Shown: in pieces, positions 30,597-38,069 of the stretch
How the letters are laid out: every line of letters starts with the position of its first letter
Position numbering within the stretch: position 1 is the stretch's first letter
IMG/VR virus record: IMGVR_UViG_2558860274_000001
Location: 1-42,135 of that record
Length of the DNA stretch: 42,135 nucleotides
Origin: a virus
Lineage: Duplodnaviria > Heunggongvirae > Uroviricota > Caudoviricetes
Direction: 5' to 3' (one strand)
Program-made: the position numbers and the translations under genes
Notes under the pieces: generated by a model
The model's database searches: none
Seen by the model: only the letters and a program-made list of their open reading frames with translations
What the model was told of the DNA's origin: nothing

Positions 30597-30752
30597 TTAC
30601 TCCTCAGGTTCGTAAGCTGTGAAGACAGCGACCTCCGTCTGGCCGGTTCGGATTCGTACCTCGCAGAGGTCTTTCCTCGTTACCAGTGCCGTCACTATGA
30701 CGGTTAAACAGATGACGATCAGGGCGATTAACATCGCCTTTTGCTGCTTCAT
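30597..30752 (-). CDS. hokD: Hok-family type I toxin (HokD/RelF-like), 51 aa
   Basis: Manual translation MKQQKAMLIALIVICLTVIVTALVTRKDLCEVRIRTGQTEVAVFTAYEPEE; below the ORF-track size cutoff. Confidence 0.85.
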   Translation of the reverse strand: MKQQKAMLIALIVICLTVIVTALVTRKDLCEVRIRTGQTEVAVFTAYEPEE

Positions 30753-31041
30753 AGCCTGCTTCTCCTTGACCTTTTGGTCCGTAAGAGGCTAATCTCTATG
30801 TGTCGCATAGATATGGCCTCAGATTAATGTTAAGCGTCTTGCAGGACGCGTAATGTTAACTGGGGCTTTTCTCTATCTGCCGTTGGTGTTCATGCCTGAG
30901 GCAGATAGCCTCAAGCACCCGCAGCAATTCTACTTAACTCTCCTTTTCCCGCAAATCGTTTTTATCCCCAGCGGCAAATCGAATACACCACCAGCGCCAC
31001 CGCCATTGCAATTCCCATCGTTGCGAATGCTTCAGGCCAGG

Positions 31042-33808: not shown

Positions 33809-34828
33809 TTACCCCCTGAACCCCGGCGGAATTTCGGTGTCCGGTTCAGAAATGTGATTCACACAACGCTGTACAGGCGAACGCCCCAGACGGATAACCA
33901 GCTCATCCCATTTTTCGCGAAGCTTTGACGGGCTCATGACGTTTTTTACCCAGAATGGATCCCGCTGTACCCGACCAAACATTTCGCAAATTTGCCTGTG
34001 AGTTCTGCCATCCAGCATCCGCATTGTGCGCACGTCATTGGCCCACACGGTCCAGTTTGGTTCTTTCGGTCGCATGATCTCGCCATCATCGCTGGCAGCC
34101 TGCTCGTAAAGACTCACGATTCGTCCCCAGATCCACTGCGCACAAGCTAAATCTTCCTGGCTACCCCACTGGCGTTTTTTCGCACTGAACACAACCGCGT
34201 CAGGGTGTCGGGTTAAAAAATCCTGTTCAGCCGTCTGCATGTCCGGTTGCGAAGCTTCCGGACGAGAAGTGTTTTTATTCTCTGTAGTAATCTCTGTTGT
34301 ATTCTCTGTAAGATCATCGGGCCATTTTGACCCGATGACATTGGGTCGTTTTGAACCAATGGAGCGTGCCATTTTGACCTCTTCCATCGTGTCATTTTGA
34401 CCTGATGGAGCGGCGCATTTTGACCTGATGGATTCGCTCACTTTGCCACCATCTAAAAGCTCACTCTCGTAATTAATCGTGTAAAAATTAGTCATGTCAC
34501 GCTTTGATTTGTTGAGCTTTTCGCAACGCAAAAGCCCCAGCGTTTTCAGACTTGTAAATGCGCGTTTTAACGTTGACTCTGACCAGAACGGGAACTGTTC
34601 CAGCCATTGTTCTGTTGTGTTATAAATCCAGCGAACCCCGTTACATTCCATGCCGGAATTAGTATCTCTCAACCAGTAATGCAGCTGCTGCAGTACAATG
34701 GCTTCATTCAGGCCAATTTTCATCGCCAGCTGCGTGTTAATAACCAGTGGGCGTTCAGCAAAAAGAAGACTCATAATTCCATCCGGCTTTTTGTTGATAT
34801 TGCTGACGATACGCATGCTTGAAAGCAA
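33809..34828 (-). CDS. Replication initiation protein (O-like), carrying ori iterons internally; start uncertain
   Basis: 339 aa; internal array of direct repeats; position upstream of DnaC-like gene. Confidence 0.65.
   Translation of the reverse strand: MLSSMRIVSNINKKPDGIMSLLFAERPLVINTQLAMKIGLNEAIVLQQLHYWLRDTNSGMECNGVRWIYNTTEQWLEQFPFWSESTLKRAFTSLKTLGLLRCEKLNKSKRDMTNFYTINYESELLDGGKVSESIRSKCAAPSGQNDTMEEVKMARSIGSKRPNVIGSKWPDDLTENTTEITTENKNTSRPEASQPDMQTAEQDFLTRHPDAVVFSAKKRQWGSQEDLACAQWIWGRIVSLYEQAASDDGEIMRPKEPNWTVWANDVRTMRMLDGRTHRQICEMFGRVQRDPFWVKNVMSPSKLREKWDELVIRLGRSPVQRCVNHISEPDTEIPPGFRG
34320..34450. repeat. Origin-like iteron array inside the replication initiator gene
   Basis: Five to six copies of CATTTTGACC(T)-like repeat at ~23-bp spacing (34323, 34347, 34370, 34393, 34416, 34439), flanked by an AT-rich stretch at 34451..34500. 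Confidence 0.65.
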
Positions 34829-35276
34829 TAGCTTTTTCTATAAGCTCGTCAGTCTCACGCTCCACAACAGCGGGATCTGCCAAAAGCAGACCGGACTCCA
34901 CCACATCGCCATATTCTTTGTTTAACCCGGCGATCATGTACGTAATGCTTTTTCCGTCAGTAATTTCACAATACAACCTGAAATCGCTGATCCGGATAGC
35001 CTCCATAATTGCCGGAATCAGCGCCATGAATTTTTCCCGCTTATCCCTGGTGTCGATAGCTTTCCAGCGTTCGAATATCTTCACCCGGTTAACGCCCAAC
35101 GCCCGTTGATCAACCTCGCCATCATTAAACGTGACGCGTTGAACATCGATGTTCGGGCGTTCTTTCAGAGCCCAGAATGCTTCCGTGATTAATATCGTCG
35201 CCTGCTCCTGTGTCATTCCTGGTCGGCATACCCAGGCATCCAGAGCCTCACAAACCTGTTCAGGGGTGATTTTCAT
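34755..35276 (-). CDS. Hypothetical regulatory protein in the cII position (YdaT-like?)
   Basis: 173-aa ORF between cro-like dicC and replication genes; family assignment not verified. Confidence 0.35.
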   Translation of the reverse strand: MKITPEQVCEALDAWVCRPGMTQEQATILITEAFWALKERPNIDVQRVTFNDGEVDQRALGVNRVKIFERWKAIDTRDKREKFMALIPAIMEAIRISDFRLYCEITDGKSITYMIAGLNKEYGDVVESGLLLADPAVVERETDELIEKAIAFKHAYRQQYQQKAGWNYESSFC

Positions 35277-35490
35277 TGTTCAACCGCCCCGCCCGCTTTG
35301 CCTTACGATATTCGTCATAAACTTTGGGGTCGTACTGAAGTTCCCCGCCGGATGCATCTTGCAGGCGCATCGCGCGACCTTCAGGTACTAGCTCCCCTTT
35401 CCAGCTATAAAGCGAAGCCAAACGAATACCAGCAGCTTGTGCAAGTTTTGTTTTTGAACCGAAATACAAAAGTGCGTCAGTTTTAAGCAT
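35260..35490 (-). CDS. dicC: DicC, Cro-like repressor
   Basis: 76 aa MLKTDALLYFGSKTKLAQAAGIRLASLYSWKG..., matches Qin DicC as I recall it; divergent from dicA. Confidence 0.85.
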   Translation of the reverse strand: MLKTDALLYFGSKTKLAQAAGIRLASLYSWKGELVPEGRAMRLQDASGGELQYDPKVYDEYRKAKRAGRLNNENHP

Positions 35491-35573: not shown

Positions 35574-35981
35574 ATGGATACAAAAAATTTAACCATTGGC
35601 GAACGCATTAGATATCGCCGAAAAAACCTCAAATACACCCAAAGGTCTCTTGCTAAAGCCCTGAAAATTTCTCATGTATCGGTTTCACAATGGGAACGGG
35701 ATGATAGCGAACCTACAGGAAAGAATCTTTTTGCCCTCAGCAAAGTACTGCAGTGCTCGCCAACATGGATTCTATTTGGCGATGAAGACAAGCAGCCATC
35801 ACCACCTATTGAGGAGCCAGTTGCTCTATCCCCCAAAGAACATGAGCTCCTTGAGCTTTTTAATGCATTGCCTGAATCAGAACAGGATGCTCAGCTCACC
35901 GAGATGCGCGCCCGAGTAAAAAATTTCAACAAACTCTTTGAAGAGTTATTAAAAGCCCGTCAACGAACAAACAAAAGATAA
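35574..35981 (+). CDS. dicA: DicA, CI-like XRE-family repressor
   Basis: 135 aa MDTKNLTIGERIRYRRKNLKYTQRSLAKALKISHVSVSQWERDDSEPTGKNLFALSKVLQCSPTWILFGDE, matches Qin DicA as I recall it. Confidence 0.9.
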   Translation: MDTKNLTIGERIRYRRKNLKYTQRSLAKALKISHVSVSQWERDDSEPTGKNLFALSKVLQCSPTWILFGDEDKQPSPPIEEPVALSPKEHELLELFNALPESEQDAQLTEMRARVKNFNKLFEELLKARQRTNKR

Positions 35982-36041: not shown

Positions 36042-36070
36042 TTGACCAAATTGTTAGCCATGGCTAATAT
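36042..36070 (+). promoter_or_regulatory. dicB-operon promoter with overlapping operator
   Basis: TTGACC, 17-nt spacer, TAATAT; palindrome TTAGCCATGGCTAA (36054..36067) overlaps the spacer and -10; second operator-like site at 36017..36034. Confidence 0.6.
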
Positions 36071-36462: not shown

Positions 36463-36681
36463 ATGCAGAAACGAGAACCCGTCATCATCGCGCCAGACTA
36501 TACCGATGATGAACTTTATGAGTGGATGCGCCAGAAAATTAATGCAGCGCAGGATCTGAAATGGGCCAATGAAGCCAGGGCTAAGCAGGCTGAAAATCTG
36601 TCCGCTCTGGAGCAGGATATCACCAATCTGGAAAAAGCAGCGGCATTAAGCATTGCCAGAATGATTACATACCCGCGTTAA
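36463..36681 (+). CDS. ydfC: YdfC
   Basis: 72 aa MQKREPVIIAPDYTDDELYEWMRQKINAAQDLKW... Confidence 0.8.
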   Translation: MQKREPVIIAPDYTDDELYEWMRQKINAAQDLKWANEARAKQAENLSALEQDITNLEKAAALSIARMITYPR

Positions 36682-36703
36682 TAGCTAACCAACGAGGCTA
36701 ATA

Positions 36704-37111
36704 ATGGAATTTAAAGATTTACCAAAAGAAATCCAGACAATTGCTGCAACGACTCTCGGTGATAGTCTGGTGAAAATTGACCCGGCATACACCAAAAAAG
36801 AAACCATCGATAATATGGTTCGTAATGTGCGCAATGCTTTTTCTGGGCTATATGGTTCTGATAATCAAAAGCAGGAAAGCGATGTTAATAAACGGGTAAT
36901 TTCTGTTTGCGTGAATGGCCATGTTCTTTCATCAATCAAAACAGAAACGGCGACAGTCTTCGATTGCCTTTGCATTGTACAGAGCCTTGTTGATGCCCTG
37001 TTTCGTTCAGTGAATTTAGAAAATGATGCAAATCTGCGAGGGCGCACAATAGCACATCCATATGCACATACTTTAGGCTCTGTGGATATCAAAGATCCCA
37101 CAAATCTTTAA
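36704..37111 (+). CDS. Hypothetical 135-aa protein in the dicB operon
   Basis: ORF with RBS GAGG upstream; 3' end overlaps a convergent ORF. Confidence 0.5.
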   Translation: MEFKDLPKEIQTIAATTLGDSLVKIDPAYTKKETIDNMVRNVRNAFSGLYGSDNQKQESDVNKRVISVCVNGHVLSSIKTETATVFDCLCIVQSLVDALFRSVNLENDANLRGRTIAHPYAHTLGSVDIKDPTNL

Positions 37112-37322
37112 TGAAATAGTTAACGCGAATTGTACTTGCTCTTTCAGTTGCTTTCAGAATACGCGTTGAAACTGCTGGCGGTAATTTGGTATTCCATTTA
37201 TTAAAATCATGCCCGGGAAAGTACTCTTCGAAAATACTTTTAACTGCAGACTCGCCTATTGAAATGCTGCTTACCATGCGATTTTGATAAAGGCATTTAG
37301 CAATAAGAGTTGATTTTAACAT
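37089..37322 (-). CDS. Hypothetical 77-aa protein encoded antisense to the dicB operon
   Basis: ORF with strong RBS AGGAGG-4nt-ATG on the minus strand; converges on and overlaps the 135-aa ORF by ~23 nt. Confidence 0.45.
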   Translation of the reverse strand: MLKSTLIAKCLYQNRMVSSISIGESAVKSIFEEYFPGHDFNKWNTKLPPAVSTRILKATERASTIRVNYFIKDLWDL

Positions 37323-37656
37323 TCACCCTCCTGAGGGTTGGTAATTAAGGAGTTCTCCACGGGTGAAATGGAGTGCGTGCGCCGGACACGGGTGAACATC
37401 CGGCACTGACAGTTTACTGAAAGGATATTTCTCTGAAAAGTCAGAGCATAACGCGAAAGCGCACGGCGAGGTTGCTGGTTCATAGATAGCCTGTCGTTAA
37501 ATTTTCGTCGACCGTGCGCTTCCGGTTGTGGCACTCCGCGAAATGGCGCGGCGGTAAGTATGGCGGGGTTATTCCTTCCCCCGTTGAGGACACCGGGTTG
37601 TCAGGTTGACCATACGCTTAAGTGACAACCCCGCTGCAACGCCCTCTGTTATCAAT

Positions 37657-37711
37657 TTTCTGTGACGTTTGGCGGCATCTGTTTGCCCATGAACTGATGT
37701 CCGCCCTTTTT
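37657..37711 (+). ncRNA. dicF: DicF-like small RNA (ftsZ-targeting sRNA homolog)
   Basis: TTTCTGTGACGTTTGGCGG...CCGCCCTTTTT resembles K-12 DicF (UUUCUGGUGACGUUUGGCGG...) with 3' terminator hairpin; located upstream of dicB. Confidence 0.7.
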
Positions 37712-37880
37712 AAAGTGAATTTTGTGATGCGGTGAATGCGGCTAAGCGCACGCGGAACAGTTAAAGCTAAAAACAGTGTTATGGGTGGATTCTCTGTATC
37801 CGGCGTTAATTGTTAACTGGTTAACGTCACCTGGAGGCACCAGGCACCGCATCACAAAATTCATTGTTGAGGACGCGATA

Positions 37881-38069
37881 ATGGAAACGTTATTACCAAA
37901 CGTTAATACGTCTGAAGGTTGTTTTGAAATTGGTGTCACTATCAGCAATCAGATATTTACTGAAGATGCCATTAATAAAAGAAAACACGAACAGGAACTG
38001 CTAAATAAAATATGCATTGTTTCGATGCTGGCCCGTTTACGTCTGATGCAAACAGGATGCAGGCAATGA
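37881..38069 (+). CDS. dicB: DicB cell-division inhibitor
   Basis: 62 aa METLLPNVNTSEGCFEIGVTISNQIFTEDAINKRKHEQELLNKICIVSMLARLRLMQTGCRQ from internal ATG. Confidence 0.85.
   Translation: METLLPNVNTSEGCFEIGVTISNQIFTEDAINKRKHEQELLNKICIVSMLARLRLMQTGCRQ

Follow-up and report, generated by a model that had tools for sequence, protein, structure and literature searches.

A polymorphic pair of convergent genes inserted ahead of the DicF precursor spacer in a Qin-like dicB operon

What fills the roughly 1-kb segment that separates ydfC from the small RNA (sRNA) DicF in a Qin-like prophage, and is it one element or several? The DNA analyzed here, hereafter the window, is the Caudoviricetes record IMGVR_UViG_2558860274_000001 of IMG/VR at its full length of 42,135 nucleotides (nt), in which the part between 35.5 and 40.8 kb is a Qin-like dicB operon. 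An earlier note, made from the sequence alone, had described positions 36682–37656 as an unannotated and highly structured segment, in which a plus-strand open reading frame (ORF) of 135 amino acids (aa) converges on and overlaps a minus-strand ORF of 77 aa, next to a GC-rich stretch that would be either a long leader or noncoding RNA of the minus strand or a structure guiding the processing of DicF. We found that the segment is two separate, independent things, namely a 634-bp cassette carrying the gene pair and the ordinary ydfC-dicF spacer. The gene pair is a real, widespread polymorphic module, undescribed as far as the searched literature shows: searching for the accessions of the two proteins, their PHROG identifiers or a description of the cassette returned nothing. 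The spacer is known biology, and what is new about it is only comparative support for a published ribonuclease (RNase) III stem.

Both ORFs, which we call ORF135 and ORF77, are present as the earlier note had described them, and so are their ribosome-binding sites, GAGG before the ATG of ORF135 and AGGAGG (read from 37332 to 37327) 4 nt before the ATG of ORF77. The description of the segment as unannotated was wrong, since RefSeq lists both ORFs as hypothetical proteins. Using blastn, we found that in a K-12-like locus (L002) the sequence corresponding to position 36701 of the window is joined directly to that corresponding to 37336, and we therefore define the 634-bp block between these positions as an insertion/deletion cassette. 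It contains ORF135, ORF77 and the ribosome-binding site of ORF77, and nothing else, with a GC content of 0.37–0.43 against 0.48–0.59 in its flanks and 0.52–0.59 in 37350–37650. Its features are the following:

36702–37335: the cassette, 634 bp, an insertion/deletion polymorphism; the K-12 Qin prophage does not have it.
36704–37111, plus strand: ORF135, 135 aa, matching PHROG 1363 (E = 3.8e-47) and, over residues 55–128, also PHROG 23433; RefSeq WP_000394520.1.
36704–36862, plus strand: N-terminal domain of ORF135 (MEFKDLP...), common to all alternative cassettes at this site (alignment A4).
36884–37108, plus strand: the P domain, the 75-aa portion of ORF135 that travels with ORF77; ratio of nonsynonymous to synonymous substitution rates (dN/dS) 0.33.
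37089–37111: tail-to-tail overlap of ORF135 and ORF77, 23 nt, a near-palindrome (AAAGAT...ATCTTT).
37089–37322, minus strand: ORF77, a small basic all-helical protein of 77 aa, whose only PHROG match is PHROG 10348, of unknown function; RefSeq WP_000920491.1.
37327–37332, minus strand: ribosome-binding site of ORF77, AGGAGG, read from the sequence.

We counted the occupants of this site in complete Escherichia coli genomes, 5426 in total, and found one empty and five occupied forms, named here by the lengths of the genes on the plus and minus strands:

135-aa plus gene and 77-aa minus gene, overlapping by 23 nt: 650 genomes.
212-aa plus gene and 73-aa minus gene, abutting: 594 genomes.
133-aa plus gene and 92-aa minus gene (the cassette of locus L003), overlapping by 41 nt: 125–169 genomes.
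129-aa plus gene and ~105-aa minus gene, overlapping by 131 nt: 28 genomes.
201-aa plus gene and 66-aa minus gene, overlapping by 23 nt: 8 genomes.
K-12-like empty junction, with neither a plus nor a minus gene: 2854 genomes.

The five cassettes follow one design, in which a plus-strand gene with the common N-terminal domain and a variable C-terminus is paired with a convergent minus-strand gene that is private to that cassette and unrelated to those of the others. Of the minus genes other than ORF77, three match PHROG families of unknown function and the fourth, of ~105 aa, matches none. When cassettes are compared with each other, homology restarts inside the coding region of the N-terminal domain and, on the other side, at the start codon of the minus gene, which points to exchange via the conserved flanks. 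The ydfC-dicF site of E. coli prophages is a cassette hotspot with at least five alternative pairs.

Beyond this site, we scanned 173 loci with hidden Markov models of ORF77 and of the P-domain protein. The two genes occur together in about 160 of the 173, convergent in every one, and they overlap by 23 or 26 nt at all loci where both are intact (more than 150). The pair is found in E. coli, Serratia, Dickeya, Yersinia, Proteus and others. In the Serratia, Dickeya and Yersinia prophages it directly follows a cI-type repressor gene, with the P gene in the early-left direction and ORF77 oriented against it. Taken together, these results show that the genes are real, that they are strictly linked in a fixed tail-to-tail geometry and that the cassette is polymorphic.

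The convergent overlapping pair proposed from the sequence is protein-coding and conserved, as seen from the PHROG matches of ORF135 and ORF77 (both at E ~1e-47), the homologues in many genera and the purifying selection on ORF77, whose dN/dS is 0.18 among 39 distinct sequences. A profile search with ORF77 returned 163 representative clusters; its close relatives form 33 clusters with 55–72% identity, almost all of 77 aa, from Klebsiella, Dickeya, Xenorhabdus, Yersinia, Serratia, Morganella and Salmonella, and in species-representative genomes it is encoded at only 4 loci. The AlphaFold model of ORF77 is a compact bundle of five helices with a predicted local distance difference test (pLDDT) score of 96.8, and a search of BFVD with this fold matched solely a member of its own family; no relative of ORF77 is known by fold or by domain. 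One public source labels the exact ORF77 sequence “dGTP triphosphohydrolase”; we treat this as a mis-annotation, having found no supporting evidence, and a comparison with the dGTPase inhibitor gp1.2 of phage T7 showed no similarity (hhalign probability 0.1%). A relative of ORF77 with 43% identity lies in a Psychrosphaera metagenome-assembled genome (L012, 3989–4228, plus strand), where it adjoins a large glycosidase-like gene, has no P-domain partner and stands in no obvious prophage context.

ORF135 is built of an N-terminal helical hairpin (residues 1–53), a disordered linker and the C-terminal P domain (approximately residues 60–135). Its AlphaFold2 model, with a mean pLDDT of 75.6, places helices at residues 8–23 and 32–50, disorder at residues 54–61, then a beta-hairpin followed by helices. 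The N-terminal domain has 505 matches on viral contigs and is joined to at least five unrelated C-termini. Homologues of the P domain exist as stand-alone proteins of 75–80 aa in many Enterobacterales, Serratia, Dickeya, Hafnia and Klebsiella among them (alignment A1; 116 clusters). A YdfC-like N-terminal segment precedes the domain in Yersinia (L008, 4212–4787, minus strand), and other proteins join it to a zinc finger of the ClpX C4 type (PF06689, E = 2.4e-8); P0102, P0116 and P0161 are also among these fusions. The fusions hint that YdfC and the P domain are functionally linked.

Searches for known families gave little. ORF77, ORF135 and the proteins of the other four cassettes showed nothing above noise in Pfam, NCBIfam or PADLOC; in PADLOC-DB v2 there was no match for ORF77 or ORF135, with noise at E ≥ 0.01 only for proteins of the other cassettes, and a weak RelB-like match (E = 0.014) concerns the unrelated 92-aa gene of the L003 cassette. 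Profile searches against the solved structures of the PDB found nothing, and scans with domain libraries recognized no toxin domain in the variable C-termini. A type II toxin-antitoxin system was rejected on the grounds that the genes are convergent rather than co-directional and that none of them matches past the curated cut-offs of Pfam, NCBIfam or PADLOC. Identity with SieB by homology was likewise rejected, ORF77 having no Pfam family and no match to a PHROG sieB family.

We then turn to the spacer, 37336–37656, which is the normal untranslated ydfC-dicF spacer of K-12. The window is about 93% identical to the K-12 ydfC-dicF region at 37336–37712, with the same RNase III stem, DicF position and terminator; the alignment that shows the homology has 92.7% identity over 769 nt. 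Gene annotation was taken from the RefSeq locus of strain CAU16175 (L001), which is 99.1% identical to the window. After ydfC the operon continues with ORF135/ORF77, the GC-rich spacer, DicF, dicB (Pfam DicB match, E = 4e-39) and genes for a DUF1482/YdfD-like protein and an exonuclease. The features that bear on the spacer and on its transcript are:

35574–35981: DicA-like repressor gene, of the 135-aa DicA type.
36042–36070: promoter-like site from a consensus promoter scan, followed in order by ydfA, ydfB and ydfC.
36463–36681, plus strand: ydfC, 72 aa (PHROG 1744, E = 1.6e-39; named ydfC in RefSeq locus L001), the last conserved gene before the cassette.
37447–37533, plus strand: long stem-loop, a predicted RNase III substrate of the dicBF transcript, with core arms 37454–37466 and 37512–37524.
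37520–37656, plus strand: 5′ part of the 190-nt DicF precursor, with a multibranch consensus structure (alignment A5).
37657–37709, plus strand: DicF sRNA in a variant form, with its terminator (Rfam RF00039 at 37657–37706).

DicF is known to be cut from a polycistronic RNA made from dicBp, which gives a 190-nt species with a 5′ end generated by RNase III and, through RNase E, the 53-nt DicF (PMC10448788, citing Faubladier 1990), and no internal promoter was found in the dicB operon region (PMC10448788). In an alignment of 47 unique versions of the spacer (A5), we found that a 13-nt inverted repeat, 37454–37466 with 37512–37524, forms the core of the long stem. The RNAalifold consensus is a stem of 16 pairs with no broken pair and with compensatory CG-to-UA and GC-to-AU changes; in an RNA of the plus strand, and only there, all four one-sided changes in the stem leave a G-U pair. 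A point 190 nt before the 3′ end of DicF lies at about 37520–37524, within the 3′ arm of this stem. If transcription is assumed to start at about 36077, some 7 nt past the promoter-like site, and the 634-bp cassette is subtracted, the published cleavage at 813/814 (PMC10448788) would fall at about 37522–37524 of the window, in agreement with the 190-nt count. Of the two roles that had been proposed for this stretch, a precursor structure guiding DicF processing is thus the right one, on the strength of a conserved stem with compensatory changes at the 5′ end of the 190-nt species, and it had already been published.

The repeats and stems listed in the earlier note were all located where it had placed them, including a 9-bp inverted repeat, GGGTTGTCA/TGACAACCC, at 37595–37603 and 37623–37631; the 13-nt core of the long stem was missing from that list. 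The stretch had been described as packed with stem-loops, and this goes only partly beyond what its GC content would give: the whole 390 nt (fold z score −2.4 on either strand) and the long stem (37440–37535, z = −2.3 compared with shuffled sequences) do exceed it, the 137 nt before DicF (z = −0.2) do not. These 137 nt (37520–37656) are nearly invariant among the 47 versions, more conserved than DicF itself or the neighboring genes, and may be a functional RNA fragment or binding platform of their own. A 31-aa plus-strand and a 72-aa minus-strand ORF in the spacer are broken by indels in related sequences, and we therefore do not consider them coding.

The GC-rich stretch does end at the 5′ end of DicF, which starts at 37657. 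DicF lies between ydfC and dicB, with a stem and a TTTTT run at 37670–37711, and is homologous by position and flanks, yet it is a divergent variant: it covers the full RF00039 model (positions 1–52) with 41.1 bits and E = 4e-7, below the gathering score of 48. Its central loop differs from that of K-12 DicF, and related prophages hold at least four DicF sequence types (A5). The Rfam scan suggested in the earlier note gave no match in the region at the gathering threshold and, at E ≤ 10, only DicF and a downstream STnc100-like match, so that neither cassette nor spacer matched an Rfam family. The latter match (37704–37913, plus strand) begins in the terminator of DicF, reaches the first part of dicB and scores 39 bits (gathering score 47, E = 1.5e-6).

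The part of the spacer nearest to ORF77 has a character of its own. The region from the start codon of the minus gene onward is conserved across three cassette types (A5), and in the L244/L246 group the ribosome-binding region has diverged with GGAGG still present. Two features of the minus strand lie here:

37355–37404, minus strand: two hairpins, 37355–37373 and 37381–37404, with TTCACCCGTG in the loop region of each.
37411–37439, minus strand: candidate weak sigma-70 promoter, TTTTCA-N17-TAAACT, matching the consensus at 8 of 12 positions and lying under the scan threshold.

The proximal hairpins contain a direct repeat, CACGGGTGAA, at 37358–37367 and 37387–37396, and hairpin 2 is the GCCGGA...TCCGGC stem at 37381–37404. 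Their folding clearly favors the minus strand (−23.1 kcal/mol, z = −2.78; plus strand, z = +0.45). Serratia, Yersinia and others have a homologue of hairpin 2, an inverted repeat that precedes ORF77 and lies just ahead of its extended −10 element, and the arms covary (GCCGGA/TCCGGC, GCCGGG/CCCGGC, GCCTG/CAGGC); the stem sequence of hairpin 1 is completely different in L244/L246. Four unique variants (L116, L201, L202 and L203) have lost the 29 nt between the CACGGGTGAA copies (aligned 37358–37386), and with them hairpin 1 as well as one of the two arms of hairpin 2; some prophages can therefore dispense with these hairpins. We consider it probable that the two hairpins are a 5′ leader or an operator of the minus gene, and a minus-strand leader may extend over at most the proximal ~80 nt (37323–37404). 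In other genera ORF77 has a promoter element of its own, judging from the extended −10 motif TGnTAnnnT that lies 39–43 nt before its ATG in all of about 20 distinct non-E. coli upstream regions. In loci L004–L009, L076–L092 and L166–L172 a covarying inverted repeat, GCCTG-N14-CAGGC or GCCGGG-N12-CCCGGC, lies about 40–70 nt upstream of ORF77; placed over the −35 region of the extended −10 promoter, it could be an operator for some regulator. The E. coli candidate TTTTCA-N17-TAAACT is invariant in alignment A5 and, with low confidence, would have transcription begin with the first base of hairpin 2, near 37404.

How, then, might the two parts of the segment work? In the explanation we favor, the conserved stem 37454–37466/37512–37524 would be the RNase III site that yields the 190-nt precursor, from which RNase E would release the 53-nt DicF at 37656/37657. 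Inserted ahead of it, ORF135 would belong to the repressor-controlled early operon and combine an adaptor-like N-terminal hairpin with a variable C-terminal domain, here the P domain. ORF77, a small soluble helical protein, would be transcribed against the operon from its own promoter and produced in the lysogen, where the early operon is repressed, in the position and orientation of lambda sieB, as a lysogen-phase factor serving, for example, exclusion, host modulation or switch control. Upon derepression, convergent transcription from dicBp through ORF77 would interfere with its expression, and the P-domain protein would bind or otherwise counteract the leftover ORF77 protein; by the same logic, each of the other four cassettes would provide an alternative pair of effector and partner. 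Taken as a whole, this explanation is tentative and falls just short of what we would call probable. By analogy, our best guess is that ORF77 is a lysogen protein which its partner from the early operon counteracts once the prophage is induced. We infer the timing of expression, the relationship between the two proteins and any phenotype; for expression under repression, the grounds are the sieB analogy and the promoter element of other genera.

Several observations weigh against this explanation. At five loci ORF77 is pseudogenized and the P gene kept (L011, L091, L137, L153 and L155), and at one locus the plus gene is frameshifted; therefore, neither gene is strictly required once the other is present. 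The 201-aa variants and L169 have the P domain but no ORF77, so that this domain is not merely an antagonist of ORF77. None of the ten cassette proteins matches a known defense, toxin, antitoxin or regulator family. As to the promoter, the consensus scan found no sigma-70 promoter on the minus strand of 37323–37656 in E. coli, the extended −10 motif of other genera is mutated there, and the candidate promoter agrees with the consensus at only the 8 positions given above. Finally, the geometry is about equally compatible with the reverse assignment, in which the plus-strand C-terminal domain would be toxic and the minus-strand gene would supply the antidote.

In that reverse assignment, the C-terminal domains of the plus genes would be early effectors directed at the host and potentially toxic, and the minus gene an antidote or immunity gene, expressed constitutively in lysogens against leaky effector production and silenced by convergent transcription on induction. 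The cassettes do have the conserved N-terminus, variable C-terminus and cognate adjacent gene of polymorphic toxin/immunity systems, and this layout recurs in five variants; the operon holds toxic products (PMC10448788), with DicB, DicF and YdfD encoded in it, and the ORF77 genes of other genera carry promoter elements of their own. However, no C-terminus contains a recognizable toxin domain, P genes persist beside pseudogenized ORF77 and also occur with other partners, and immunity genes are normally co-directional with, and just downstream of, the toxin gene, all of which leaves this alternative unlikely, if worth keeping in view. A role of the minus genes mainly in cis, as an antisense promoter or brake against leaky dicBp transcription before it reaches dicF and dicB, with the proteins secondary, would account for their position, which in E. 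coli is just ahead of dicF/dicB and opposed to the operon, and for the minus-strand upstream region that the cassettes have in common (the conservation across three types in A5), and it has a lambdoid antisense precedent in OOP/cII. We regard it as improbable because the proteins are under purifying selection (the dN/dS of ORF77, its conserved length and confident fold) and because Serratia and Dickeya prophages carry the pair with no dicF or dicB downstream; moreover, three of the four other minus genes also belong to PHROG protein families, and more than half of the E. coli genomes have the empty site.

ORF77 could instead be a small antirepressor or induction-control protein acting on a DicA/cI-type repressor, like the small ORF (smORF) products of transcription factor (TF)-smORF modules or Rem of Qin. 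Being a small protein with no characterized homologues near the immunity region, it resembles these precedents (PMC10432266, and Rem), and the covarying inverted repeat over the −35 region might be an operator. Yet ORF77 proteins that are 55–70% identical adjoin unrelated repressors (HTH_3 with Peptidase_S24, a 237-aa HTH_3 protein with no S24 domain, and the 135-aa DicA type), and for this reason a specific antirepressor is disfavored; nor is there an adjacent divergent transcription factor, and the strict pairing with the P domain would go unexplained, which makes the proposal quite improbable. There remains the other role suggested in the earlier note, in which the whole of 37323–37656 would be a long structured 5′ leader or noncoding RNA on the minus strand that serves ORF77. 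Over the whole stretch, folding of the minus strand (z = −2.42) does match that of the plus strand, and the proximal hairpins favor the minus strand, but K-12 keeps the spacer with no minus gene at all, the one-sided changes in the long stem wobble on the plus strand only, ORF77 of other genera has its −10 element about 40 nt from the ATG and no such spacer, and the published processing is that of the plus strand, with no other promoter in the region (PMC10448788). We find this reading scarcely credible.

On a broader view, the preferred explanation would make the cassettes an undescribed class of swappable two-gene modules in the early-left operon of Qin-like and other lambdoid prophages, each consisting of a lysogen protein, here ORF77, and an induction-expressed partner domain that are coupled by convergent transcription and protein antagonism, serving exclusion with self-immunity or as a safety catch of the lysis-lysogeny decision, with the ydfC-dicF site as a diversity hotspot. 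This generalization is speculative, and we think it unlikely to hold in full. The dicBF operon is a model for how the products of a cryptic prophage (DicF, DicB and YdfD) act on division, metabolism and phage resistance of E. coli, and K-12, in which it was studied, carries the empty form of the site. About one quarter of complete E. coli genomes have one of at least five convergent pairs, with functions unassigned, directly upstream of dicF. If the minus genes are expressed in lysogens, they are candidate exclusion, defense or switch factors of prophages, and their convergent transcription could also alter the amounts of DicF and DicB from strain to strain.

Elsewhere in the window, a match to the sok antitoxin RNA of Rfam at 30750–30920 (minus strand) is strong (102 bits) and implies a hok/sok-type type I toxin-antitoxin locus in another part of the prophage. 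Two adjacent transfer RNA genes lie at 25231–25381 (minus strand; Rfam 64.9 and 73.8 bits).

Among known systems, the spacer corresponds to the dicBF spacer of Qin (Faubladier 1990; Ragunathan 2023, PMC10448788; Balasubramanian 2016, PMC5069750), being the same precursor; unlike in K-12 Qin, the 634-bp two-gene cassette parts it from ydfC, and DicF is a variant that scores too low for the Rfam gathering threshold. One paper (PMC6206680) lists the dicBF region of UTI89, but solely as a source of division inhibitors. TF-smORF modules (Silpe et al. 2023, PMC10432266) likewise encode small phage proteins with no characterized homologues in variable modules near lysis-lysogeny genes, but they consist of a transcription factor and a divergent smORF, whereas the pair described here is convergent and lacks a transcription factor. 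With polymorphic toxin/immunity cassettes the gene pair shares a conserved N-terminal module, a swappable C-terminal domain, a co-varying small neighbor and recombination boundaries in conserved flanks; it differs from them in having no recognizable toxin or secretion domain, in the convergent and overlapping partner and in its place inside a phage early operon.

Two lambda loci offer further comparisons. Antisense control of the OOP/cII type is a lambdoid precedent, and OOP RNA and cII resemble the pair in convergent transcription, overlapping 3′ ends, location in a lambdoid regulatory region and an RNase III-processed operon; in contrast to OOP/cII, both partners here are conserved proteins and the coding overlap is just 23 nt. 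Lambda sieB is an exclusion gene expressed in the lysogen. It lies at 34482–35036 (plus strand) and abuts N (35037–35438, minus strand) within the pL operon, tail-to-tail near the immunity region. Since sieB opposes pL and abuts N in the same manner, the description of an antisense gene in such an operon as unusual was overstated. Like sieB, ORF77 is oriented against the early-left operon and stands tail-to-tail with an early gene near the repressor, and the Serratia and Dickeya pair is in exactly this position. The two have no sequence relationship, however, ORF77 having 77 aa and lambda SieB 184 aa; the partner of ORF77 is not N-like; and ORF77 and its partner are strictly linked, whereas N and sieB are not. 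In architecture, lambda sieB is the closest precedent of the gene pair, the layout of which is a variant of the sieB/N arrangement.

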